From Minisyncoccota bacterium (GTDB taxonomy: Bacteria; Patescibacteriota; Minisyncoccia; Phycocordibacterales; UBA9973): a DNA stretch of 64,000 bases. A model generated the notes under the pieces. That model saw nothing but the letters and a program-made list of their open reading frames with translations. It did no database searches and was not told where the DNA came from. The number at the start of each line of letters is the position of its first letter. Positions within the stretch are counted from its first letter, which is position 1. Positions 7,138 through 47,132 of the stretch are shown one piece after another. The position numbers and the translations under genes were made by a program. The stretch spans positions 105,383-169,382 of the forward strand of contig JBAZSF010000001.1 of NCBI GenBank assembly GCA_041662525.1, in the 5' to 3' direction.

Positions 7138-8889
7138 CTAGTAAACCTCTTGCTGATAACATTTTTCGCAATACACTATTTCAGGGCGATCGGGAGCATA
7201 GCTCGTCTCAAACTCTATCTCGCACTTACTTGCTCCATGAGAATGATTTGGTTTAGTACACATACAAGACCTATGCCAGAGTTTCATAGGATTACGCATT
7301 TTCAACCTATTTTCATGACGACACAAAAAACATAACCTAGGTAAAGGTACTCCAAGTTTTCGATATAAATTTAATTCATCTATAGTAATTTTATAAGCCC
7401 CTCTACAATAATTACTGAATTTTCCTTTATTTCCACATCCAATAATTTCTTTTGTAATAGAATTTTTAACATCATCTAAATTATCAGGAAAATTTTTTGA
7501 TTCAATTGTTGTTTTATATTCATTTCCTGATCTTTCACGCCATCGATATCCCATTTTAAGTGCCTGTTCCTTCTCTATGGGAAAATAATCTTGTGCCTGA
7601 GTTTCATTGTAGCAAAAAGTAGAAAGTTCACTGGGAAAAAATTCTCCATATTTGTATATAATTCCTCTCTTGTCCACATAGGGTACTTCATTCATTTGTT
7701 CTTTGATTTTTGGAATTAATTTTTCATATTCTTCTTTAAAGTATTGTTTGTTTAAAATACAATATTTTTTATTTCGCACACCAATACAACCAAATAAATT
7801 TGAAGACCCGTGGCAATTAAAAGAATACTCAATATCATTTGAACCATAGATCACACTGCCAAAAAGATTGCGAAAACCGCCTATTCCTGTATCAAATACC
7901 TCATAAAGCATTTCGCCTTCCCCTACTCCAGGCCCAGAATCATAAGCATCTTTAAGACTTTTTACTGACCAATGTGAATATTTTGAATCTTCAATTTGTC
8001 CATTTGCATCAAAACAAATTTTGCAATTTTTTGTACCTTCTAAGTTATCACCTGTTGAATTTACCACCTTTATTTGAACAGCAAAGCGATGCAATGAATT
8101 AAGATATAATTCTTTAAACTTATTTTTAAGTTCTAAAATAGTTTTATAATCTTTAAGATTATATTCAGCTAATTTTCTGTGATATTCTTCCCTAGAAAGC
8201 TGTTCATTCCACATGCAATATGATTTATTGCGCAAATTAGTACAACCAAAACAATCTGTGCATCCTACGCAATCATAAAGAAAATATGAATCTACGCAAC
8301 TTTTACAATTCAGAGAATAAAGTAAATGATAACTGTCCGAACAAATTACATCTTCATAACAAAGCTCAGAACGATTGACAACATATAAATCTGCAGAATC
8401 TTTTGTCCCGGTAATTCTATTAGAATACAAAGTTCTTTCTATTCTCCATGAACCAGAACACATATAGCAGTCCTTGCTAGCTTCTGCGATATTACAATAA
8501 TCGCTATTTGTTGCATTTACATTTGAAAGGGCTTGGAGGGGAATATTATTTCTTAAATTTTTCCACTGTTCAAAAAAAGGTTTAGAAAAATCATATTCTT
8601 TGCCATAAGAAAGCGGATCCCAGCCATCTCCCCACCAAGCATCAGCACAATACACAGTAAGTTTTTCTTCTGGAGGTAAAAAAGAAATAAGCATTTCGTC
8701 ATGACCTGGCGCATCACATTTTCTTTTGAACAAAGACATCTCGTTACGCCAAGTTATACGTCTGATAGTTCTGCATTCCGGACAAAAAGTCGGAGGTGGA
8801 ACTTTCATCTTTTTATAAAAGTTAAAATCCTCTAGTTCGATGACAAAGTCTTGTTTACAATTTTGGCAATTTTTAGTTTCAGAATTCAT
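7138..8889 (-). CDS. Cysteine-rich (~33 Cys) internally duplicated zinc-ribbon protein, paralog 1 of a 3-member family of unknown function
   Basis: 583 aa. N-terminal ribbon 'CQNCKQDF..FNFYKKMKVPPPTFCPECR' and homologous C-terminal module 'LNLYRKLGVPLPRLCFLCR'. Two central Cys clusters each ending 'CFGC..LRNK.YC..N.Q.S.EEY'. Start is 1 nt after the ATPase-2 stop. Confidence 0.6.
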   Translation of the reverse strand: MNSETKNCQNCKQDFVIELEDFNFYKKMKVPPPTFCPECRTIRRITWRNEMSLFKRKCDAPGHDEMLISFLPPEEKLTVYCADAWWGDGWDPLSYGKEYDFSKPFFEQWKNLRNNIPLQALSNVNATNSDYCNIAEASKDCYMCSGSWRIERTLYSNRITGTKDSADLYVVNRSELCYEDVICSDSYHLLYSLNCKSCVDSYFLYDCVGCTDCFGCTNLRNKSYCMWNEQLSREEYHRKLAEYNLKDYKTILELKNKFKELYLNSLHRFAVQIKVVNSTGDNLEGTKNCKICFDANGQIEDSKYSHWSVKSLKDAYDSGPGVGEGEMLYEVFDTGIGGFRNLFGSVIYGSNDIEYSFNCHGSSNLFGCIGVRNKKYCILNKQYFKEEYEKLIPKIKEQMNEVPYVDKRGIIYKYGEFFPSELSTFCYNETQAQDYFPIEKEQALKMGYRWRERSGNEYKTTIESKNFPDNLDDVKNSITKEIIGCGNKGKFSNYCRGAYKITIDELNLYRKLGVPLPRLCFLCRHENRLKMRNPMKLWHRSCMCTKPNHSHGASKCEIEFETSYAPDRPEIVYCEKCYQQEVY

Positions 8890-8890
8890 G

Positions 8891-10950: not shown

Positions 10951-11043
10951 CAAAAAATTTAGAAAATAATTTTTTTGAACGGTCTGGCTGGGGTGGGACC
11001 CAGAGAACCGAGGACCTGAGAAAAAATTGATTTTCTAAATTTT

Positions 11044-13626: not shown

Positions 13627-15351
13627 CTAATAAATTTCTTGTTGATAACAACGTTCACAGTAAACTATTTCTGGTCGATCTGGCGCGTAACTAGTCTCAA
13701 ATTCTACTTCACATTTTTGTGTGCCATGTATGTGATTTTTTTTATCACACATACATTGCCTACGAAAAAAAAGAGGTAAATTTCGTAAGGTTAAACGTTC
13801 ATAATGCCGACAATTAATGCAAAAACGCGGTAATGGAAGATTCATTCTTTTTAAAAAATCAAGTTCTGATTTGATTATGCGAAAAGCCCCGGTGCATTCG
13901 TGTTCACAAGACTCATCGTGTGCACATTGAATAGCCTGATTAAGTATGTCATCACTTACATCATTGATATTATCTAAGATGTCTTTATTTTTTAAAGTAA
14001 ATTTATAATTTTGTTTTGTAGTTTCGTACCACGAAAACCCTTTCCTCTTTGCATCTTCTTTACCCAATGGAAAAAATTCGTAAGCAGTAGTTGCTTTGTA
14101 TGGAAAAAAAGAAAATTCACTTGGGAAAAATTCTCCATATTCTTTTGCTTGTTTCATATGTTCAATTATTTTGGGCACTAATTTTACATATTCTTCTTTT
14201 GTGTACTGTTTATTAAAAATACAATATTGCTTATTTCGAAGCGAAACACATCCAAAAAGATCTGATGAATTACTGCAAAAAACACAATAAGTTAAATTTT
14301 TTACATTTGTATAACAATAAGCACTAAATTTTATATTTGATCCCCCATTTCCAACAATAAGACTTTCGTAAATAAGTTCTACATTTTCTCCATAATTTGA
14401 ATAATCATAGCAATCCTTTACAGGTCCCATTAAAATATTTTGGACAAATTTGCTATCTTCCACCATCCTTACACGAAAACAATATTTTGCATTCTTAGAC
14501 CCATAAACATAATCACCAGAAACATTCACATTTTGACGATCGTGAATATATTTTTGCGGGTAATCAAGCCAATGTTTATATACCTCATCTTTTAATACTC
14601 TTAAGGCTTTATTAGAACCTAAATTTAATTCTTTAATATTTTTTAAATAATCTTCTCTAGAATATTGTTTATTAAAAATGCAATATGATTTATTGCGAAG
14701 ATTAATTGAACCAAAACAACTATTGCATCCAATACAATCTTTACACAAAATCATTTCCTGACAACTCTCACAATCAACAGAAAAAAATGTTTTATAACAA
14801 GCTGTAGTATTAATATTTCCATAACTCAATTCACATTGATTTGTCATATGGCTATCAAAGCATTGTTTAGAACCCTTATCCCAAATTAAATATGCAGAAT
14901 CTTCCGCATAAGAGACTCCTCCTCGAACCAAATAACAATTTTTTACATCATGCACATTAGTGCAATAGTAACAATTCACTAAATTATACATAGAATGCGC
15001 AGGTAGTGGCACCCTTAAAAGTAAACTTTTAAACTGTTCGAAAAATGTTTTTGTAAAATCAAAATCACGAGCATACTCAAGTGGATTCCAGGCATCAGAA
15101 ATCCAATAATCTCGATCATATATTTTATAAGGACTTTCTTCGGGAAAAAGTGAAAAAATTTCTTTTCCACCAAGAGCTTCCTTTTTCTTAAATAAATGCC
15201 AATCATTACGCCAGGCCATTCTTCGCTGCATCCTGCATTCCGGACAAAAAGTAGGCGGAGGTACTTTTATCTTTTCATAAAAATTAAAATCCTCCGGCTC
15301 TATGACAAATTCTTTCTTACAATTTTGGCAATTTTTTGTTTCAGATTTCAT
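13627..15351 (-). CDS. Cysteine-rich internally duplicated zinc-ribbon protein, paralog 2
   Basis: 574 aa. First ~45 and last ~30 residues are almost identical to paralog 1 ('MKSETKNCQNCKKEFVIEPEDFNFYEKIKVPPPTFCPECR' and 'KCEVEFETSYAPDRPEIVYCERCYQQEIY'); middle region divergent. Confidence 0.6.
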   Translation of the reverse strand: MKSETKNCQNCKKEFVIEPEDFNFYEKIKVPPPTFCPECRMQRRMAWRNDWHLFKKKEALGGKEIFSLFPEESPYKIYDRDYWISDAWNPLEYARDFDFTKTFFEQFKSLLLRVPLPAHSMYNLVNCYYCTNVHDVKNCYLVRGGVSYAEDSAYLIWDKGSKQCFDSHMTNQCELSYGNINTTACYKTFFSVDCESCQEMILCKDCIGCNSCFGSINLRNKSYCIFNKQYSREDYLKNIKELNLGSNKALRVLKDEVYKHWLDYPQKYIHDRQNVNVSGDYVYGSKNAKYCFRVRMVEDSKFVQNILMGPVKDCYDYSNYGENVELIYESLIVGNGGSNIKFSAYCYTNVKNLTYCVFCSNSSDLFGCVSLRNKQYCIFNKQYTKEEYVKLVPKIIEHMKQAKEYGEFFPSEFSFFPYKATTAYEFFPLGKEDAKRKGFSWYETTKQNYKFTLKNKDILDNINDVSDDILNQAIQCAHDESCEHECTGAFRIIKSELDFLKRMNLPLPRFCINCRHYERLTLRNLPLFFRRQCMCDKKNHIHGTQKCEVEFETSYAPDRPEIVYCERCYQQEIY

Positions 15352-15361
15352 AATCTTACCT

Positions 15362-15406
15362 TTTCCCCTTCTTCCCCTTCACCAGGTGAAGGGGAAGAAG
15401 GGGAAA
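15362..15406. repeat. 45-bp perfect palindrome (22-bp arms, 1-nt centre), GC-rich, between Cys-rich paralogs 3 and 2
   Basis: tttccccttcttccccttcacc a ggtgaaggggaagaaggggaaa, read directly; the two arms are exact reverse complements. Confidence 0.9.
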
Positions 15407-15408
15407 CT

Positions 15409-17097
15409 TTAATTTATATTTTGCTTGTAACATTCTTCACAGGCGATTTTTTGATATCCCCATTCTGGTAAATAATACGCTTCAATATCTTTTTTACAAT
15501 AAAAACATTTATATGAATACGCTTGCAAAACAGTTAAATATTTTAAACTATTTTTTATTCTCACATCAAAATGATAACGCGGGAGCGGTATATTATTTTC
15601 TTTATAAAAAGAAAGTTCATTTTGGGCAATATTAAAACGCCAACCTGTTTCTGGGCATAAAAGTGCCTGAGTGATAATAGTATCCGAAACATCTTTCACA
15701 TCATCAGGAAGTTCGTTTGTAGGCATCCCATCTGTCTGACCTTCTGTTGTATCTTCCCAATAACCACCAATCTTTAGCATATCTTCTTTTTTTGTGTTTG
15801 GAAAATAAAAAAACCCAGTAGAGAAATTAAATGGTCCAAGACTCATGGAATAAGGCAAAAATTTTCCATACTCACCTCTTTTTTTCATATCAGAAATAAT
15901 CTCATCCCGTAATTTTTCATATTCCTCTTTAGAATACTGCTTATTTAAAATACAATATTTCTTTTTCCTCAAACCCACACAACCAAAACAATATTCACAC
16001 TCAATACATAAATCTAAATATTCGGAATATCTAGAAGAAGACCAGCTAGAATATTTGAGAGCATAACCGCTGGGTTGGCAAGAACTACAATTCCCTGATA
16101 TTTCTAAATCCTGACAGCCGGTAATATCAATACAAGATTCCAATCCTCTACCCCTAATACAATTAGAACAATCTTCGGATTCTGAAATCGTAAAACAATT
16201 ATGACAATTTTTACAATCCAATAAATAATCTCCAAAAGAATTATGAACTTTTAAATTAAAATTAGGTCTATGCACTACTTCTTCTTGAACTATTTCTTCA
16301 AAATGTTTTTTATGCTTTTGGATAGAATCATAGGAACCAAGTTGAAATGATTTGATTTTTTTATCATATTCTTCTTTGGAGTATTGAACATTTTCTATGC
16401 AAAAAGATTTATTGCGAAGATTCCAGCACATAAAACAATCCTGACAATTCCGACAGTCATATAAAAAGTAAGAATTTATGCAATCTCGAGAATGTTTAGA
16501 GTAAAAAAGTTTATAAGAATGATGGCACTCAGAAGAGTCAAAACATTTTTCACTATTGTAACAAACTATCACATCAATAGAATTTTTTACATTGATGTTT
16601 CTATATGAATAAAATAAGTTTTCACAATCCACCATAGAACGTGAAAGATAACTATCTTTACAACTCCAAACATCATCGCACCAATCACATCCTGTGCTTT
16701 TACTACCATCTTGATGCGGACGAGGCACTTTTTCTTGGAGATTTTTTAATTGCTCAAAAAATGTTTTTTTCTCATCGTAATCTTCTCCATAATTCATTGC
16801 ATCCCATTTATCGCTGTACCATTCAGAAAGAGTGTAGATTGGATATCTGCTATTCTCCGGCAAAACTGTAATCAAACTTTCTCCAGAAAGATCAGATTTA
16901 CCTTTGCGAAATTTTCCAAATACCCAAAAAGACAAGTGCAATTTTACCCGACAGAAAAAACAAAGTGTCGGCAACTCTATATCAACTTTTTTATATAAAG
17001 ATAATTCTCCTTCTGTAATTAAAAAATTATTTCCACAATGCTCACAAATATTAGTTTGTTGGTTCTTTGTATTCATATACATTGACCCTCGCGGCAC
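15409..17097 (-). CDS. Cysteine-rich internally duplicated zinc-ribbon protein, paralog 3 (most divergent; start codon ambiguous, overlaps grpE 3' end)
   Basis: 562 aa. N-terminal 'CEHCGNNFLITEGELSLYKKVDIELPTLCFFCR', central 'CRNCQDCFMCWNLRNKSFC', 'CFGCVGLRKKKYCILNKQYSKEEY', C-terminal 'CFYCKK...CEECYKQ'. Alternative starts: MYMNT at 17082 or MNT at 17076. Confidence 0.55.
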   Translation of the reverse strand: MPRGSMYMNTKNQQTNICEHCGNNFLITEGELSLYKKVDIELPTLCFFCRVKLHLSFWVFGKFRKGKSDLSGESLITVLPENSRYPIYTLSEWYSDKWDAMNYGEDYDEKKTFFEQLKNLQEKVPRPHQDGSKSTGCDWCDDVWSCKDSYLSRSMVDCENLFYSYRNINVKNSIDVIVCYNSEKCFDSSECHHSYKLFYSKHSRDCINSYFLYDCRNCQDCFMCWNLRNKSFCIENVQYSKEEYDKKIKSFQLGSYDSIQKHKKHFEEIVQEEVVHRPNFNLKVHNSFGDYLLDCKNCHNCFTISESEDCSNCIRGRGLESCIDITGCQDLEISGNCSSCQPSGYALKYSSWSSSRYSEYLDLCIECEYCFGCVGLRKKKYCILNKQYSKEEYEKLRDEIISDMKKRGEYGKFLPYSMSLGPFNFSTGFFYFPNTKKEDMLKIGGYWEDTTEGQTDGMPTNELPDDVKDVSDTIITQALLCPETGWRFNIAQNELSFYKENNIPLPRYHFDVRIKNSLKYLTVLQAYSYKCFYCKKDIEAYYLPEWGYQKIACEECYKQNIN

Positions 17098-23267: not shown

Positions 23268-24467
23268 TTATGCTTGCCCCGATATAGTGGGGTAAATTAA
23301 AAAACGATTAATGTAAACAGAATCAATAATTAAAAAAGGTTCACGAAATACATTTTCCTTAAATGCTACAATTCCTTCAAGAAATTTTTCATTTAAAAAA
23401 ATAGTTTCAAACTTTGATTCTGTTAAAGTATATTGACTAAATTGTTCAGTTTTAATTGTTTCAGAGAAAAAATCTACTAAATCTTTATCAATAATTATAA
23501 AAATAGTTGATGGAATAGAAATGTCATTCGATAAATTAGCCAAGGAGTCTTGAAATTTCTTCAACCATTCGGTTCTTAATTTATTTAAAATTACTGTGAG
23601 TTTTTTAGCCATGGATTCTTCTGCATGTCCATCTCTAAAAAGAGAAATAAGAGATTCAGCCTCACCCAAGGTACAATTTAAATCTAAGGCAACTCCACGT
23701 GTTAAAAAATTACACCCAAGAGGAAAAGACACCGACTCACGCAAGGTATCCTTTTTTATCATAGATATATCCGTCACTTCTCCACCTATTTCTAATAAAA
23801 GAAAATTTTCTTGTTTTTTATATATATCCCGTACTGTTGTAAAAAAAGACAATAGAAAAGAAGAAAATCTTATTTGTTTAAAATGAAAATATTTACCTAT
23901 TGTATTCTCTATTTTTTTTAATATTTGTTCTCCACTCATAGAAACAAAAATATTCATTTCTAATTCTTTAATTTTTTTATTAAAGAACTCAGACGTTTCG
24001 TAACCATTTAGCATTATTTTAATATTTTTAAGTTCAATCATTCGAATTCTGTTATCAATATTACCATATTTCAATGTATGTTCTTCTTCGAAAAGTTTTA
24101 TTTCTTTTTGTATTAATTCATCAGCCAATTTTTCAGTAAATAAAAAGGGTGTATTTTTCTTTAAATTAATTATTCTTGTTTGAGAAATACACCAAGGAGA
24201 AGATAAAACGCAAAAAGTCTGGGAGGGTGTACCCAAGCCTGCTTTGTAAATTTTTTCAACAACAATATCTAGAGATTTTATTGTAGATAATAAAAAATTA
24301 TCAATATTAATCTTTTCTTCTATTTTTATAAACTCTTTAGTAGAAAAAATTATTTTAGGAATTCCAGAGCTTTGTGCCTCCAAAAGTGCTCCATCTACAG
24401 AAGAGGACCTAATATTAAAAACTAGCACTAACTCACTTTTTTCTTTAAATTTAGAAAAAATACTCAT
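23268..24467 (-). CDS. PilM/FtsA-like actin-fold ATPase (start probably ATG at 24467; track start 24503 is a TTG inside a conserved noncoding element)
   Basis: 'LVLVFNIRSSSVDGALLE' (phosphate-1-like) and 'LLLEIGGEVTDISMIKKDTLRESVSFPLGCNFLTRGVALDLNCTLGEAESL' resembling the FtsA/PilM 'DiGggtTDi...ipiGG..it.dIa' motif. Confidence 0.5.
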   Translation of the reverse strand: MSIFSKFKEKSELVLVFNIRSSSVDGALLEAQSSGIPKIIFSTKEFIKIEEKINIDNFLLSTIKSLDIVVEKIYKAGLGTPSQTFCVLSSPWCISQTRIINLKKNTPFLFTEKLADELIQKEIKLFEEEHTLKYGNIDNRIRMIELKNIKIMLNGYETSEFFNKKIKELEMNIFVSMSGEQILKKIENTIGKYFHFKQIRFSSFLLSFFTTVRDIYKKQENFLLLEIGGEVTDISMIKKDTLRESVSFPLGCNFLTRGVALDLNCTLGEAESLISLFRDGHAEESMAKKLTVILNKLRTEWLKKFQDSLANLSNDISIPSTIFIIIDKDLVDFFSETIKTEQFSQYTLTESKFETIFLNEKFLEGIVAFKENVFREPFLIIDSVYINRFLIYPTISGQA

Positions 24468-24486
24468 GTAATAATTATAACAACAA

Positions 24487-24554
24487 ACGAGGAGCATAAA
24501 CAAGTTTATTTGTTTAATGTCCGAGTGCCGTTGTTATATGGTAATCCATATAGC
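24487..24554. promoter_or_regulatory. Conserved ~70-bp promoter/operator module, copy 1: 18-bp palindrome TATATGG-N4-CCATATA plus AAACAA..TTGTTT palindrome, then TATAAT just upstream of the pilM/ftsA-like gene
   Basis: Near-identical to 39620-39688 upstream of clpB (sequences compared directly). Confidence 0.55.
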
Positions 24555-26698: not shown

Positions 26699-27889
26699 TC
26701 ATACAACGACTCCACCACCTAAGCAAATATCACCATCATAAATAACACAAGATTGGCCAGAAGCAACCAAAATCGGTTTTTTAAAAAACACTGTTGCCCT
26801 TCGACTACGTTCAGGGCCTTCGGCGACTTTGATTGTACAAGGTAGAAATTCTCCATGATAACGAATTTGCGCTGTGTAAGTTTTATTTGATTCTGGAATC
26901 TTGTTAATCCAATTTATATTTTCTAGATTTATTTTAGAATCAAATTCAACCCCCCTTAATCCCCCCTTATCAGGGGGAAGCTGGGACACATATAAAATAT
27001 TTTTCTTTATATTTTTACCAAATACATAATAAGCCCCATCCGTTGGCATTTTTTTTGTAATGGTAAAACCATGCCTTTCTCCTAGAGTATAAAAAACTAC
27101 TCCATCATGATAGCCGATTTCTTCCCCTTTTTCGTTTAACACTTTACCTTTTTTTTCTTTTATGTAATGTTTCAAAAATTCTTTTAAATCAACTGCTCCT
27201 AAAAAACAAATACCTTGGCTATCTTTTTTTTCTGAAACTGGAAGATTGAATTTTTTAGCAAATTTTCTAACTTCAGTTTTTTTAAAACCTCCAATAGGAA
27301 ATAAAATTTTCTTTAACTGTTCTTGTTTTAGTGTCCATAAAAAATAACTTTGGTCTTTTGTAGGATCATTACCTTTCATTAAAAAACTCAAAGCAGTGCT
27401 TTCTGCGACATTCGCAACCAAAGCTCGGTCAGTCATGTTCAAGATAGAGTGCGAGTCGCAAGAAAGTACCTGATTTGAGTTTTTTGCATAATGTCCTGTA
27501 GCCACAAAAATCTCCGCCGAAGGACGGACAAGCGCACCCAGCAAAAGAGCTTTTTTAAGAAAGGCTCCAAATTTCACCTCTTTATTGCACATCACATCTG
27601 GATTTGGTGTCCTTCCGAGCTTGTATTCTCGAATCATATAATCAGCCACTTCTTTTTTGTACACGTCCTCAAGATCAAAAGTAAGAAATGGGATGTCTAA
27701 AGATGCCGCTACACGCATCGCATCCATCCGTTCTTCTTCTTCATTACAAACTAGAAAATCCGGATGCCAAGTTTTAATAAAAACCCCCACGACTTCATAT
27801 CCTTGTTTTTTAAGCAAAGTAGCCGAAACAGCGCTATCTACACCACCAGACAAACCTACAAAAACTATTTTTTTCTTAATGTTAGTCAT
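26699..27889 (-). CDS. mnmA: tRNA-specific 2-thiouridylase MnmA (with in-frame GC-rich palindromic mini-insertion)
   Basis: PP-loop 'IVFVGLSGGVDSAVSA', 396 aa; insertion encodes 'PPDKGGLRG'. Confidence 0.88.
   Translation of the reverse strand: MTNIKKKIVFVGLSGGVDSAVSATLLKKQGYEVVGVFIKTWHPDFLVCNEEEERMDAMRVAASLDIPFLTFDLEDVYKKEVADYMIREYKLGRTPNPDVMCNKEVKFGAFLKKALLLGALVRPSAEIFVATGHYAKNSNQVLSCDSHSILNMTDRALVANVAESTALSFLMKGNDPTKDQSYFLWTLKQEQLKKILFPIGGFKKTEVRKFAKKFNLPVSEKKDSQGICFLGAVDLKEFLKHYIKEKKGKVLNEKGEEIGYHDGVVFYTLGERHGFTITKKMPTDGAYYVFGKNIKKNILYVSQLPPDKGGLRGVEFDSKINLENINWINKIPESNKTYTAQIRYHGEFLPCTIKVAEGPERSRRATVFFKKPILVASGQSCVIYDGDICLGGGVVV
26944..26980. repeat. C-run/G-run hairpin mini-element (attcaaccccccttaatccccccttatcagggggaag), copy 1, in-frame inside mnmA
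   Basis: Second copy at 45342-45379 (attcaacccccttcttttcccccttatcaggggggaat); ~60% GC in a ~33% GC genome. Confidence 0.8.
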
Positions 27890-36846: not shown

Positions 36847-39579
36847 TTAAACCGAAGATCGAGATCGCACACGAATTGAGCTTTTTATTTTTCTTGCCCG
36901 TCCTCCGGCGGGGCCTTTTTTTGTTTCAACAACAATTTCGTTATTTTTCTCAGAAACAAATACAGTGTCCCCTTTGGATACTTTGTTTGAAATAATATAA
37001 GACGCAACTGAATTCAAAATCTTATTCTGAATCAAACGGTTCAGTGGTCTCGCTCCATAATGTGGGTTATATCCTTCTTTTGCTAAATAAGAAAGTGCTC
37101 CATCAGAAATCTCAAAATTTATTCCTTTGGCTTTCAGACGATCAACTACAACCTTGATACGCAAATTGACTATTTCTTTTAGAGCAATTTCCGACAAAAC
37201 ATCAAAGACAATAATCTCATCTAAGCGATTCAAAAATTCTGGACGAAAATTATCTTTTAACGCTTCTGTCACTTTTTCTTTCATACTACCATAATCTTGT
37301 TTTTGAGAATTATTAGAAAATCCAATTGATTCCATCTTTTCTACAAATTGTGAACCGATATTAGAAGTCAAAATTATAATAGTATTTTTGAAATTTACTA
37401 CTCTTCCTTTACCATCAGTCAGTCGCCCTTCATCAATAACCTGCAGAAGCATGTTAAAAACTTCTGGATGAGCTTTTTCAATTTCATCAAAGAGAATCAC
37501 CGCATATGGACGATGCCGAACAGCTTCAGTCAATTGACCAGCCTCATCGTATCCCACATATCCTGGCGGAGACCCAATGAGCTTGGACATAGAATGTCTC
37601 TCTGTATATTCAGACATATCCACCCGAATAATCGCACTCTCATCATTAAACATAAATTGCCCAAGTGCCTTTGTGAGTTCAGTCTTACCGACACCTGATG
37701 GACCTAGAAAAATAAAAGAACCGATTGGTCGATTTGGATCTCCGATACCAGCACGAGAACGACGAATAACATCAGCCACGCGCCCGATAGCAGCGTCCTG
37801 ACCCACCACTCTCTTTTTTAGTTCAACCTCCATCTTTTCAAGCTTTTCACGTTCTTCTTCAAGCATCTTTGTGAGTGGTATTCCCGTCCAACGAGCCACC
37901 ACCTCGGCGATATCTTCAGCAGTGATTTCTTCTTTTAAAATTCTACGAGATTTTTGCAATTTCTTTAATCGTGCGAGTTTTATATCGAGCTCTTTCTGAA
38001 GGGTAGGTATTTTCCCATAACGTAATTCAGCAGCTAAAGTAAGATCCGCTTTCATTTCTGCATCTTCGGCTTCCAAACGAATACTTTCGAGTTCTTTCTT
38101 AATACCTCTGATTTCTAATACGATTGTTTTTTCGTTCTGCCATTTTAATTCCAATTCTTTTGTCTTCTCAGACAAATTACCTATTTCTTTGTCTATTTCT
38201 TTAATTCTATTTTTTATTTCATTATTTTTTCCTTGTACTTTTTCTTTTTGTTTTTCTTCTCCACTCGAAGAACTGATCTCTTTTTTGAGAGCTTCTTTTT
38301 CGATTTCTAAACGCATTGTTTTTTTGTTCGCATCTTCTAAAATCGGTGGCTTATTTTCAAGCATTATCTTTAATGAAGAAGAAGCTTCATCAATCAAGTC
38401 CACAGCTTTGTCTGGTAAAAATCTGTTTGTAATATAACGAGAAGACAGATTGACCGCAGACACGATAGCATCATCAGTAATTCTGATACCATGGAAAAGT
38501 TCATACTTTTCTTTAAGCCCACGAAGAATTGTAATGGTATCTTCTATGCTAGGTTCATCGATATAAACAGGCTGGAAACGGCGTGCTAATGCAGGGTCTT
38601 TCTCAATATGTTTTTGATATTCTCGCAAGGTAGTGGCGCCAATAGCTCGAAGTTCTCCACGAGAAAGCGCTGGCTTCAACATATTTGAAGCATCCATTGT
38701 GCCTTCGGCTCCGCCTGCACCGACAATAGTGTGGATCTCATCAATAAAAAGAATTATTTTTCCAGCAGATCGTTCGATCTCTTTCATAATGCCTTTCAAT
38801 CTTTCTTCAAATTCTCCACGGTATTTTGTACCGGCCACAAGCATTCCTAAATCAAGAGAAACAATTTCTTTATCTTTTAAAGATTCAGGAACATTATTTT
38901 TTGCAATCAATTGGGCTAGCCCTTCCACTACAGCAGTTTTTCCAGTCCCCGCCTCCCCTATCAAAATAGGATTATTTTTTGTTCGACGTGAGAGAATCTG
39001 CATTATGCGAGTGATTTCACTATCCCGACCAATGACTGGATCTAATTTATCTTCTTTAGCCAACTTTGTTAAATTGCGAGTATATTTTACCAATAATTTA
39101 AATTTCTTTGGCTCGGAAACATCTGTGATATTTTGACTACGGAGTTCTCCTAAAACTTTCATTACTTGATCTTTGTGAATCCTAAATCTAGCCAAAGTCT
39201 CACGTGCTTCACTTGTGACTTCGAGAATTGAGATAAAGAGATGTTCTGTTGAAACAAAATCATCTTTCATAAACTCTGCCAGTTTAGCTGACTGTTCTAT
39301 AACTTGTGCTAAATCAGGATTGAGATAAATCTGATACGAAGGTGAGATGGTGCTACGTGCTTCTGGTAATTCAATTAATTCTAAAACAGAATCAGTCAAA
39401 AGCATTGTATCGATTTCCAATTTATCTAAAATAGAGTTCACCATAGATTCCTCTTGTAGTAAAAGTGCACCGAGCAAATGCAATGAAGAAACATGGTTCA
39501 TACCACGTTCGATAGCCAGCTCATGGGCTTTTTTAATGGCATCTTTGGCTTTAGTTGTAAATTTATTTAATGGTGGCAT
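36847..39579 (-). CDS. clpB: ClpB disaggregase (two AAA+ modules with coiled-coil middle domain)
   Basis: Clp-N repeats, Walker A 'GEAGTGKT' and 'GPSGVGKT', long coiled-coil M domain between NBD1 and NBD2, 910 aa. Confidence 0.9.
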
Positions 39580-39619
39580 ATTTTTTTAATTTAAATTATA
39601 TATTTATATTATAGCAATA

Positions 39620-39688
39620 AATGAGGAGCAGAAACAAATTTATTTGTTTAATGTCCGAATGTAGTTGCTATATGGTAATCCATATACA
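39620..39688. promoter_or_regulatory. Conserved ~70-bp promoter/operator module, copy 2, upstream of clpB (TATATGG-N4-CCATATA palindrome at 39669-39686)
   Basis: aatgaggagcagaaacaaatttatttgtttaatgtccgaatgtagttgctatatggtaatccatata is ~85% identical to 24487-24554; followed on the minus strand by a TATAAT-like box and the clpB ATG. Confidence 0.55.
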
Positions 39689-44426: not shown

Positions 44427-44453
44427 CAAAGTGCAAGGGCACTTTGTGCGAGC

Positions 44454-44506
44454 CGGAGGCTGACGAGCCGAGGCGGGGTCGCGCAAAAATTCAGCAGAAT
44501 TTTATG
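44454..44506. repeat. Inverted copy of the ~50-bp repeat core also found at 27933-27981
   Basis: cggaggctgacgagccg...gcaaaaattcagcagaattttatg is the reverse complement of cataattttctgctgaaaatttgc...cggctcgtcagcctccg. Confidence 0.7.
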
Positions 44507-44655: not shown

Positions 44656-45342
44656 GTGCTATACTACACATGTATGAATAAAACAAACTACAAATCAATA
44701 TTTTTTGGCTTATCAATGTTAGCTTTTAGTTTATGGGTCACACCCGTAAAAGTTCTTGCTACAGCTGGTTATGTTGATAATCCAACCCCTTATATTACAT
44801 ACATCACCCCAAATTCTAGTAATGGTAATATTGGATCAAACTTAGTCATTGCGATTACAGGAAATGGATTTATTCCAAGCTCAATCGTTAGAGTCAATGG
44901 TTCTGATCGCAAAACAACTTTTATAGATTACTCCCATATTCTAGTTAGAATAAATCCAAATGATACCTACAACACTGATGGATTCTACATTAATATTTTC
45001 AATGGATTTCCTGGAGGAGGATATTCTAATTCAGCATTATTTACCATAAATAATAACAACAATGACTCCTCTACTATAACCAGAACTAATACGAACACAG
45101 GAAACAATACCTATAACTCAAACAGCACTTATTCAAATACAAATCAAACAGATACTACTAATACAAATTCAGACTCTAGCAACCTCGCTTCCGCAGCTAT
45201 TTTCGGATCAAATAACTTCCTCCCTTCCGGCTTGATCCAGTGGATATTGTTTGCCATAGTAATTCTACTTATCGTCATCCTTGCAAGAAAAGTTTTCGGG
45301 GCTACAGCAAAATACAACGAAGCACCGATGAAGACTCCGTAA
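44656..45342 (+). CDS. Cell-surface protein: signal peptide, Ig-like (IPT/TIG-like) domain, Asn/Thr/Ser-rich low-complexity stalk, C-terminal TM anchor
   Basis: 'ITYITPNSSNGNIGSNLVIAITGNGFIPSSIVRVNGS', then 'NNNNNDSSTITRTNTNTGNNTYNSNSTYSNTNQTDTTNTNSDSS', then C-terminal 'IQWILFAIVILLIVILARKVF'. Confidence 0.45.
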   Translation: MLYYTCMNKTNYKSIFFGLSMLAFSLWVTPVKVLATAGYVDNPTPYITYITPNSSNGNIGSNLVIAITGNGFIPSSIVRVNGSDRKTTFIDYSHILVRINPNDTYNTDGFYINIFNGFPGGGYSNSALFTINNNNNDSSTITRTNTNTGNNTYNSNSTYSNTNQTDTTNTNSDSSNLASAAIFGSNNFLPSGLIQWILFAIVILLIVILARKVFGATAKYNEAPMKTP

Positions 45343-45379
45343 TTCAACCCCCTTCTTTTCCCCCTTATCAGGGGGGAAT
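45342..45379. repeat. C-run/G-run hairpin mini-element, copy 2 (intergenic, starts at stop codon of the surface-protein gene)
   Basis: attcaacccccttcttttcccccttatcaggggggaat; see copy 1 at 26944-26980. Confidence 0.8.
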
Positions 45380-45570
45380 TAACAAAAAACGGAAGCCTTG
45401 CTTTCGTTTTTTGTGCTTGACTTTTTCATATTAGGTGTGGTATAATAAGTGTTGAAAAATTCGTTGAAAAAAGAATAGGAAATAAAGACGAAGGGTTTCT
45501 CTTCGTTAAAGAATATAGAGGATTTTTCCTCTAAAAATTTTGAAAGCGCTTCAGCGCAAGGAGAAGAAAA

Positions 45571-46566
45571 ATGATAGAAATAGGATTATTTTTTTTGGTG
45601 ATATTAATGCTATTCCCATTCACAGCGTATTCACTCTCAACTCTTGATGTTTTTTTTACCCGCCTAGAAAGCGGTAGCATTAAGTTTATTAAAACTGGGG
45701 ATGGACTCCGGGAGATAATCTATAATACCCCTGGATACAAACTAGTGGATGGAAAATCTGGAATAAAAGAATTCCAGCCCACAGACGAAAAACAAAAACG
45801 TCCATGGTTGGGACTATACTGGATTGGGTTGCCACCTTTTGCAAAAGTGCATAAATTCAAAATAACAAAGGAGACCGAAAATCCAACGGGGAAAACACCA
45901 GAAGATTGGATTCTGGGAGGCAAAGAAGAGTTCATTGTAGATAGCCTTAGATTTATTTTTCCACGGCCTTATGTATTGAAGGCAGTGGAACTGAAAGACA
46001 GAACATCGGTTGATGTTCTGGTATTAGCGAAGTTTGAAGTTGTAAGACCTTTCGTTCCTGTTTTTTATTTCAAAGGCAAATTTTTTGAAAACGCGGGGGC
46101 TGACATTAGGGCCACTATAATAGACATTCTCAAGGAATATACTCTTGAGAAGTTTGTTACAGAAGCAAAAAAAGGAGAAGAGGGAGGGGTTCTTGCTGTA
46201 ATGAAAGAACCTAATGGAATTTTCAATAAAACCCTAATAGAGCAAGTTGGACTTCGTATTACTGGGATTTCGATCCCACAATACGACCCATCTGACAAAG
46301 CATTAAGGGAAGCTATGAACGCCCGGACTATTGCTAAAGAGCAGGGTCAGGCAATAATAGCAACAGCGAACGCAAACGCGGAAGCACAAGAGCGTCTTGC
46401 GATTGCTCAAAGAATTCAAATTAAAGAAATGGTTGAGGGCTTTGGTGGAGACACCAAAGCTACAGCAGAAGTTATGAGAGCACAAGCGCTCGCAGGAGGG
46501 AGTATAACAACACTGGTAGACGGTAAAGCGTCAGCTGTTGTGCCTGTAGGGGGTGAAAAATCATGA
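45571..46566 (+). CDS. SPFH/band-7 (stomatin/flotillin-like) membrane protein
   Basis: N-terminal TM, SPFH body, C-terminal Ala/Glu-rich coiled coil 'AKEQGQAIIATANANAEAQERLAIAQ'. Confidence 0.65.
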   Translation: MIEIGLFFLVILMLFPFTAYSLSTLDVFFTRLESGSIKFIKTGDGLREIIYNTPGYKLVDGKSGIKEFQPTDEKQKRPWLGLYWIGLPPFAKVHKFKITKETENPTGKTPEDWILGGKEEFIVDSLRFIFPRPYVLKAVELKDRTSVDVLVLAKFEVVRPFVPVFYFKGKFFENAGADIRATIIDILKEYTLEKFVTEAKKGEEGGVLAVMKEPNGIFNKTLIEQVGLRITGISIPQYDPSDKALREAMNARTIAKEQGQAIIATANANAEAQERLAIAQRIQIKEMVEGFGGDTKATAEVMRAQALAGGSITTLVDGKASAVVPVGGEKS

Positions 46567-47132
46567 TTCATCTGATTTGGATCATCCCGATAGGGATGAT
46601 AATATTTATCATCGCGTCCACTAAGTGGCGCCCACGAATTCCCAATATCCCGCACTTTCATTGGGGATGGCTTGTACCAATTGTGATAGTAGTAGTGGTT
46701 GTAGTTGGTTACTACCTCTACTCATCACATAAGGCAACAGCAAAAGTGGATAAAAAGCAAATGAAAAACGTCCTCGTGTGCAAAGACGAGGAGACCGAAA
46801 AGTGGGTGAAAATCCCACCAGGTTTTTACAAGGAAGGGGGTTCGGGAGAGTGTGTCGAGGGCACACCTCCGCCGCCTCCGGCACGGGCAACCAGAACTGC
46901 AGGAAAACATAAAACACTTTATGTTTTCCTGCCTGATGGGTGTATCACAAAACACCTTTCGGGAAATTGGGAAAGGTATCCCAAGGGAGGAGCAATAAAA
47001 TTCCTAAACTCCCAAGGGAAAGTAGTCTTGATTGACGAACCAGGTACTTATGTACCCTCGTCATTACCTGCAGGAGAGTACAAGATCTGCAAGGTAAGCC
47101 TCGATGCATGGGGCGTCGAGATCTGGGAATAA
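46563..47132 (+). CDS. Membrane protein translationally coupled (ATGA overlap) to the SPFH gene; candidate short NfeD-like partner
   Basis: 2 N-terminal TM helices, Pro-rich linker 'GTPPPPPARA', C-terminal beta-rich domain; GC content (~50%) clearly above genome average. Confidence 0.4.
   Translation: MIHLIWIIPIGMIIFIIASTKWRPRIPNIPHFHWGWLVPIVIVVVVVVGYYLYSSHKATAKVDKKQMKNVLVCKDEETEKWVKIPPGFYKEGGSGECVEGTPPPPPARATRTAGKHKTLYVFLPDGCITKHLSGNWERYPKGGAIKFLNSQGKVVLIDEPGTYVPSSLPAGEYKICKVSLDAWGVEIWE

Follow-up and report, generated by a model that had tools for sequence, protein, structure and literature searches.

In-frame and intergenic copies of a GC-run hairpin module in a Paceibacteria genome: probable half-modules of a DUF559-associated palindromic element

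Introduction

Palindromic DNA that resides in frame within protein genes has been held to be a peculiarity of Rickettsia. Going by the summary of Ogata et al. (2000 and 2002) in a 2024 review of MITEs, the miniature transposable elements with inverted repeats (PMC10969869), the Rickettsia palindromic elements (RPEs) are about 100–150 bp long and restricted to Rickettsia, and the review treats in-frame residence of this kind as exceptional to them. Here, we describe two copies of a short GC-rich hairpin sequence in a 64,000-nucleotide stretch of a Minisyncoccota (Paceibacteria) metagenome-assembled genome (MAG; GCA_041662525.1, contig JBAZSF010000001.1, positions 105,383 to 169,382). This whole stretch is called the window, and all coordinates are counted from its first letter. 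Copy 1 lies within mnmA, the essential gene of a tRNA 2-thiouridine synthase, and copy 2 lies between genes. We consider it fairly probable that both are solo half-modules of a palindromic selfish element associated with DUF559 genes, one housed in a permissive linker of MnmA and the other in a 3′ untranslated region (UTR). The complete unit, judged from sequence, appears to be a small gene for a DUF559 (Vsr-like PD-(D/E)XK) endonuclease bracketed by inverted GC-run hairpin modules.

Like RPEs, the modules are short palindromic selfish repeats that occur between genes as well as stop-free and in frame within unrelated housekeeping genes, where translation turns them into additional loops that the fold can accommodate. 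They differ from RPEs in that the module is about 30 nt long (about 80 nt for the composite and 37 nt for copy 1), is built of G- and C-runs, is spread over many phyla and is associated with DUF559. A first-pass annotation of the window had drawn the parallel with RPEs; it holds for behaviour and not for family membership, since a Paceibacterota MAG as host and a size of ~37 nt set the copies apart, and no kinship in sequence is expected. For the RPEs, we know of no associated or mobilising enzyme.

Repetitive extragenic palindromic (REP) sequences and the REP-associated tyrosine transposases (RAYTs), with their REPtrons and REPINs (REP classes, PMC3733652), offer a parallel on this point: inverted short palindromes flank a small gene for a DNA-cleaving enzyme on both sides, and their solo copies far outnumber the gene. 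However, the enzyme here has the PD-(D/E)XK Vsr-like fold of DUF559 in place of a Y1 HUH transposase, no GTAG/CGTC head is found on the modules, and REPs are essentially extragenic, whereas the modules often lie in frame within genes. A REPtron was rejected on the lack of a GTAG/CGTC end and the identity of the bracketed gene as DUF559; the sole Y1_Tnp gene seen, at the ortholog locus L001, is not beside a module.

The invasion of coding genes by Vsr-like homing endonucleases has been described (PMC2677866), and a group I intron homing endonuclease belongs to the Vsr/DUF559 clade (PMC3424549). As far as these accounts of fractured genes (PMC2677866) and of I-Bth0305I (cited in PMC3424549) go, such enzymes have in common with the present system a Vsr-type nuclease fold, a selfish habit, conserved coding genes as targets and hairpins beside the open reading frame (ORF). 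They are found mostly with phages and either break up the host gene or reside in an intron or split intein, whereas the ORF that hosts a module is continuous and the element, sometimes with the whole endonuclease, is translated through, with no intron or intein and no viral copies found. An ORF with the Vsr-like homing-endonuclease fold is present at related loci, and the window is without one.

MITEs (PMC10969869; PMC2229807) are likewise small derivatives without coding capacity, with inverted ends, many copies per genome and occasional in-frame fusions. The modules differ in having no identified target-site duplication or DDE transposase partner and in being far shorter as a unit. The terminal inverted repeats and small size of a MITE are found in the ~75–85-nt composites described below; the associated ORF encodes a DUF559 nuclease-fold protein and not an autonomous transposase. 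An integron attC site was also rejected, as the context is wrong: instead of standing at cassette boundaries, the copies are within housekeeping genes or 40–107-nt tandem arrays. By eye, ATTCAAC/GTTGAAT do fit the attC core consensus (RYYYAAC...GTTRRRY), though no search for intI was made. Hairpin-forming inverted repeats in the coding sequence of an AT-rich compact genome are also known from the GC clusters of yeast mitochondrial DNA. Coding palindromes of Nematomorpha mitochondria (PMC6649704) are hairpin repeats that persist in the same setting, and the two are the closest analogue of a second palindrome in the window mnmA, at 27383–27481. Both these and the yeast clusters differ from the present elements in being organellar, unrelated in sequence and without an associated nuclease gene.

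The Two Copies in the Window

Both sequences are present where the first-pass annotation had placed them, at 26944–26980 and 45342–45379. Copy 1 (26944–26980, minus strand, the sense strand of mnmA) is a solo half-module whose plus-strand letters in the window are attcaaccccccttaatccccccttatcagggggaag. On the mnmA sense strand it reads CTTCCCCCTGATAAGGGGGGATTAAGGGGGGTTGAAT, that is, a C-run, a TGATAA loop, a G-run, ATTAA, a second G-run and TTGAA. Copy 2 (45342–45379, plus strand) is also a solo half-module, intergenic and in the position of a 3′ UTR. Its letters are attcaacccccttcttttcccccttatcaggggggaat, laid out as TTCAA, C-run, TTCTTTT, C-run, TTATCA and G-run, and its plus-strand orientation is the same as that of copy 1. 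The two copies agree exactly in an 11-nt head, ATTCAACCCCC, and a 16-nt hairpin core, CCCCCTTATCAGGGGG, and the spacer from head to core varies; to call the copies near-identical, as had been done, is right for head and core and somewhat generous for the whole. The hairpin CCCCCT-TATC-AGGGGG, which had been read in both copies, is this exact core. In copy 1, it occupies 26962–26977 (no strand assigned) and is backed by the exact 16-mer, by folding and by covariation of the stem in the family.

By chance, the window is expected to hold 0.07 matches to the 16-mer, and the observed count was reached in 0 of 100 shuffles. The 11-nt head alone was not significant against chance in the window, and the folding energy of the single modules is ordinary for their composition (z of −0.5 and −1.5). 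Therefore, the significance of the copies rests on the sequence family and not on energy. No third copy was found in the 64-kb window, even with a loosened definition, and tblastn found no DUF559 homolog in it. With two solo half-modules as its whole complement and no DUF559 gene, the window most likely carries non-autonomous copies.

Copy 2 and the ORF at 44656–45342 (plus strand, 228 aa, without a Pfam match) overlap by one base, the final base of the TAA stop being the first of copy 2, which bears out the earlier remark that this copy lies right at a stop codon. Directly after copy 2, and separate from it, there is a strong intrinsic terminator-like hairpin with a T-run (45382–45414, plus strand), and a promoter-like site at 45417–45446 comes after that. 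Because of this separate hairpin directly behind it, and with AATTAAC following copy 2 itself, copy 2 was rejected as an intrinsic terminator.

MnmA as a Host

The host gene of copy 1 (26699–27889, minus strand) encodes 396 aa. Pfam recognises in it the tRNA_Me_trans HUP, PRC-barrel and C-terminal barrel domains of MnmA, and MnmA chains in the PDB match it with E ~1e-76. The site of copy 1 is the linker between the PRC-barrel, which ends at about residue 303, and the C-terminal barrel, which starts at about residue 319. There the copy is read in frame as LPPDKGGLRGVEF (residues ~304–316, in the context ...SQLPPDKGGLRGVEFDS...), the peptide across it being ...SQLPPDKGGLRGVEFDSK..., and the ORF is unbroken, as the first-pass annotation had stated.

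Comparison was made with 31 aligned Paceibacteria sequences and with 92 parsable orthologs. Orthologs at 66–85% identity are 349–431 aa long, and in the alignment of 31 the core is highly conserved and four indel hot spots are filled by a few recurring peptide cassettes. The interdomain linker is hypervariable, with lengths of 14 to 50 aa across the 92 orthologs. The focal cassette fills it in nine of them (~10%) and is absent from the rest, which is at odds with an ancestral segment carried by all MnmA proteins. It appears in two reading frames, as PPDKGGLRGVE and, in orthologs P0042 and P0074, as SPLIRGR.GGG. In a neighbour-joining tree of conserved columns, the carriers are scattered, and P0005, which falls within the window's own small clade, is without the cassette. 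From its presence in nine of 92, its two frames and its scattered placement on the tree, it follows that the focal MnmA segment is a lineage-patchy inserted sequence, and it was probably acquired more than once. The insertion is common to some orthologs and hence not private to the window genome, and two further Nomurabacteria genomes carry the module in mnmA. Solved MnmA structures are without the segment, and the net gain of the window MnmA at this place is only ~5 aa; the surface-loop insertion of ~9–12 aa that had been expected is thus an insertion in an interdomain linker, with fewer extra residues.

In the DNA, the window mnmA and those of three orthologs have GATAAGGGGGGATTAAGGGGGGTTGAATT unchanged, with differing codons on its flanks, and 29 nt of the module are identical across those mnmA genes. 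The module codons are rare elsewhere in the gene, and the genomes are AT-rich. The C-run arm of the mnmA module is decayed in two of these three orthologs, L001 and L004. The AlphaFold model of the window MnmA is weak (predicted local distance difference test score, pLDDT, 63). It puts the cassettes in segments below pLDDT 50, as it does several segments that hold no cassette, so the modelled placement weakly favours a loop for them.

The Module Family across Genomes

The module is a sequence of ~32 nt, C5-6 TGATAA G5-6 N3-7 G5-6 TTGAA. One genome per GTDB species was scanned with the pattern CTGATAAGGGGGN{4,10}GGGGGTTGAA, which has 22 specified bases. It matched 94 genome stretches, and often many contigs of a single genome. 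The hosts are Poribacteria, the group Gallionella/Sideroxyarcus/Sulfurimicrobium/Nitrosomonadales with its Gallionellaceae, Nitrospirota and Nitrospina (Nitrospinota), ‘Troglogloeales’, Deltaproteobacteria and Binatia, together with Saccharibacteria, Peregrinibacteria, Doudnabacteria and Nomurabacteria of the candidate phyla radiation (CPR). Two features that the pattern does not cover are conserved as well: an upstream C-run that completes the hairpin and, very often, a second and inverted variant module (AACCCCTCCC..CCTCCCCTTATCAGGGGAGG) 10–25 nt away, which makes composites of ~80 nt. In 86 distinct hairpins, a T in the C-arm stands opposite a mirrored A in 55 of 97 cases versus 5–12 in shifted controls; the stem therefore covaries. 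The composites, of the forms A-spacer-B and B-A, consist of inverted modules and span ~75–85 nt, and the one at locus L002 folds with z = −3.4. The ends of the module are AACCCC.../...GGGGTTGAA.

Long ORFs run through about 25 of some 100 module copies, which lie in either orientation and are translated in several frames. Matches in Pfam or the PDB confirm as hosts LigA, MiaA, RecG, GatB, a P-type ATPase, trigger factor (tig), a GT2 glycosyltransferase, an M23 peptidase, a radical-SAM protein, ThiL, RluA, HsdR and CysRS (cysS). In CysRS, the module is a clean insertion of 9 aa (27 nt) between conserved motifs, and LigA has a 19-aa composite insertion and a second module when compared with E. 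coli LigA. In translation, the C-runs yield Pro-Pro and the G-runs Gly-Gly. The RPE-like behaviour suspected from the two window copies is borne out by this scatter of copies, some between genes and others read in frame within a good number of conserved genes unrelated to one another.

In-frame palindromic selfish DNA and repeat-bracketed nuclease genes are known kinds, and the present family is apparently undescribed in Rfam or the searchable literature. Rfam 15 gave no relevant match (in the window, only tRNAs and spurious sub-threshold matches), the module motifs were absent from a full-text literature search, and the literature searched yielded nothing on in-frame palindromes of CPR bacteria or on repeats that flank DUF559. 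A 52-aa composite query against a database of 5.8 billion proteins returned only nine tiny hypothetical ORFs. An assembly artefact was rejected, because copies are found in closed long-read chromosomes and in assemblies made independently of one another (ENA, JGI, Logan and NCBI), and a variant type is found in isolate plasmids.

Several Poribacteria loci (L050, L059, L016, L069, L086 and L060) hold tandem arrays of modules with periods of 40–45 nt or ~78–107 nt, and some ORFs of 700–900 aa in these loci contain repeated TPLIRGDKGGLN units. CRISPR- or TIGR-like arrays were considered for these tandems and dropped, as the period is only 40–45 nt. An intramolecular triplex from mirror G-runs was dropped too, since the signal is the same as that of direct-repeat or long-hairpin logic. 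In Poribacteria and Deltaproteobacteria, the module also forms the tip of longer palindromes that are specific to the lineage.

Association with DUF559 Endonuclease Genes

The link between the family, which crosses phyla, and a DUF559 endonuclease gene goes beyond what had been noticed in the window. In a Saccharibacteria locus (L063, 1236–2651), a single miaA ORF comprises a module, an in-frame DUF559 domain and an inverted module. In Nomurabacteria, the window's class, locus L043 has the arrangement [A-sp-B]-DUF559-[A-sp-B] between housekeeping genes, and in Binatia (L067, 422–3241) a module–DUF559 unit lies in frame inside a DNA-methylase ORF. The modules around the ORF show two topologies, B-ORF-A and AB-ORF-AB. 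The DUF559 ORFs of these related loci match Pfam PF04480 at E = 1e-26 to 1e-30 and the PDB entry 3HRL at E = 4e-20. In the MiaA of L063 and the methylase of L067, the whole DUF559 domain with its flanking modules, ~150 aa, is translated through without intein or intron.

A set of 80 DUF559 homolog loci was drawn from one metagenome scan, and a module hairpin was counted if it lay within 150 nt of the ORF. Such hairpins were found at 11 of the 80 loci, including all six closest homologs; the background elsewhere in these loci was one module match in 155 kb. The same design, with an AGAATT/AATTCT loop, occurs in annotated plasmids of Pseudanabaena isolates, where the repeats carry no annotation.

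Origin and Spread of the Modules

For the two window copies as half-modules of a DUF559-associated element, the following course of events may be envisaged. The DUF559 endonuclease would recognise or cut the modules, which can form hairpins or cruciforms, and repair of the break would spread the modules to fresh sites by copying, at times together with the gene. Recombination or deletion between flanking modules could then drop the ORF and leave solo composites or half-modules. In compact genomes, with scant intergenic space, the survivors would be stop-free copies that keep the frame in permissive loops, and Pro-Pro and Gly-Gly from the C- and G-runs would make such loops flexible and rich in proline and glycine (P/G). 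In the window genome, one module would be tolerated in the MnmA linker as a part of the enzyme and the other in the 3′ UTR, both as passengers without a function of their own.

Several observations weigh against this account. All ten module codons in mnmA are identical in four lineages, versus 49–68% for identical residues elsewhere in the gene, which is unlike a purely neutral old relic and suggests constraint at the nucleotide level or recent homogenisation. Among the loci compared, no transposition or homing event and no pair of filled and empty alleles was captured, and no consistent target-site duplication could be recognised in the flanks of ~25 composites, whose boundaries are approximate. 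All copies of the TGATAA type come from MAGs. Viral contigs gave 0 matches to the module, and phage records gave three distant DUF559 matches. The module motif is missing from 69 of the 80 DUF559 homologs retrieved, and a DUF559 gene is near only three of the 94 module loci. On this sequence evidence, the DUF559 link would be confined to a subfamily, and the nuclease might be a driver, a cargo or a gene that homes into the repeats.

It is conceivable, then, that the modules are moved by another agent, such as a Y1 transposase of the IS200/RAYT type or recombination by the host at hairpins, with DUF559 as a cargo or as a homing gene that targets pre-existing repeats. The rarity of DUF559 near modules that are mostly solo would agree with this, as would the lack of a target-site duplication, as in IS200/IS605; B-ORF-A and AB-ORF-AB could be explained by homing into a B-A target; and a Y1_Tnp gene does occur beside alaS at L001. 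However, that gene adjoins no module and is absent from the window, the modules lack REP-type GTAG/CGTC heads, and the loop type shifts with the DUF559 lineage (TGATAA versus AGAATT in Pseudanabaena). Since the loop type tracks the lineage of the nuclease, gene and flanks are suggested to be one co-evolving unit, and we regard another agent as unlikely. We are a little more doubtful of a function for which the host keeps the sequence, whether as an mRNA hairpin (a 3′-end stabiliser at copy 2, a translational pause in mnmA), as a protein-binding DNA site or as a useful P/G-rich linker of MnmA. The covarying stem, the place of copy 2 directly upstream of a terminator, where stabilisers of the REP kind are active, and the excess conservation of the module codons over synonymous sites elsewhere in mnmA are what such a function would lead one to expect. 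Yet ~90% of close MnmA orthologs and every solved MnmA are without the module, its C-arm has decayed in L001 and L004, a single module has ordinary folding energy, and AlphaFold puts it in a low-confidence segment; its presence at unrelated positions of unrelated proteins, in both orientations, is ill-suited to a gene-specific role.

An ordinary lineage-specific linker, with the second copy and the outside matches due to chance or composition, appears very improbable. The linker does vary from 14 to 50 aa in any case and the hairpin energy is unremarkable given the composition, but the 16-mer expectation of 0.07, the 22-base pattern in 94 stretches with an unscanned C-run and partner module conserved, the 29 identical nt across orthologs and the rarity of the module codons in the genes of AT-rich genomes all speak against it.

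In-frame coding palindromes occur here in CPR bacteria and in at least half a dozen other phyla, and alongside a candidate enzyme, so that their mechanism is open to experiment. If the window copies are indeed remnants of a DUF559-associated element, this would also supply a concrete functional hypothesis for some members of the large DUF559 family, whose function is unknown. The odd P/G-rich insertions (…PPDKGGLRGVE…, …PLIRG…, …PPLSGG…, …PPYQGG…) that enlarge and diversify conserved proteins of metagenome-derived genomes would find an explanation, with a bearing on how CPR proteins are annotated, placed in alignment-based phylogenies and predicted in structure. It is tempting to go further and propose, though only tentatively, that DUF559 genes and GC-run hairpin modules are an unrecognised cross-phylum class of selfish elements which colonises essential genes by translation-through, without introns or inteins. 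Were this true, P/G-rich loops and occasionally a whole nuclease domain would be left in housekeeping proteins, and the Paceibacteria MnmA, with four cassettes and a covarying 99-nt coding palindrome among them, would exemplify the extent to which CPR proteins are shaped in this way.

Other Cassettes in mnmA and Elsewhere in the Window

Besides the focal module, the window mnmA has at least three more in-frame cassettes; the Paceibacteria MnmA is a mosaic of in-frame mini-elements, and much of its variation in length (349–431 aa) is due to recurrent cassettes. The second element (27383–27481, minus strand) is a near-perfect coding palindrome of 99 nt, NSNQVLSCDSHSILNMTDRALVANVAESTALSF, which belongs to another family and behaves in the same way. 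Its peptide is …LLSHGSHSILNMADRALVAN…ES…, its fold has z = −5.1, and different genomes have it at two different mnmA sites. Across 12 copies, 92% of the cells of a 29-pair stem are paired, versus 42–47% in slid controls; 17 of the 29 pairs change on both sides, and the observed score was reached in 0 of 500 shuffles.

The third cassette (27506–27535, minus strand) encodes ALVRPSAEIF from a ccgtccttcggcgg mini-hairpin and is patchy among orthologs (4 of 92). Its CCGTCCTYCGGCGG hairpin recurs, with 89% identity, at 36893–36911 in the C-terminal tail of ClpB (ORF 36850–39585), and the two are translated in opposite orientations, as ALVRPSAEI in MnmA and GPAGGRARK in ClpB. The fourth cassette (26789–26830, minus strand), KVAEGPERSRRATV, is a GC-rich island found in 11 of the 92 orthologs, again patchily, and AlphaFold models part of it with confidence as a short helix. 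Shortly downstream of the dnaK stop (11044), an intergenic sequence at 10974–11025 has the translation FFSGPRFSGS, which matches an in-frame mnmA cassette of P0005, P0027 and P0013; this is another element family with intergenic and in-frame copies.

Between the paralogous minus-strand genes 15409–17097 and 13627–15351 lies a perfect GC-rich palindrome of 39 nt (15365–15403), CCCCTTCTTCCCCTTCACCAGGTGAAGGGGAAGAAGGGG, with a folding energy of −34.9 kcal/mol; it has the motif CCCCTTCTT..CCCC in common with copy 2. A 79-nt repeat at 24474–24552 and 39608–39686 is 89% identical between its copies and forms a hairpin with compensatory differences. The former lies immediately downstream of alaS and extends over the 5′ end listed for an FtsA-like ORF (23268–24503), and the latter is upstream of clpB. 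At the position of the former, L001 has the IS200-like Y1 transposase gene instead, which the window is without. The spacer from tRNA-Lys to tRNA-Leu in a cluster of four tRNA genes (44430–44497) is strongly structured, with 80% GC and no Rfam match. An 83% GC island at 46831–46905, in the ORF 46563–47132, has surroundings of 33–40% GC and encodes ...EGGSGECVEGTPPPPPARATRTAG...; it may be another in-frame insertion. Finally, 7560–8890 and 14050–16420 are diverged paralogous gene copies with 60–78% DNA identity (repeat families D1–D4, D10 and D12).

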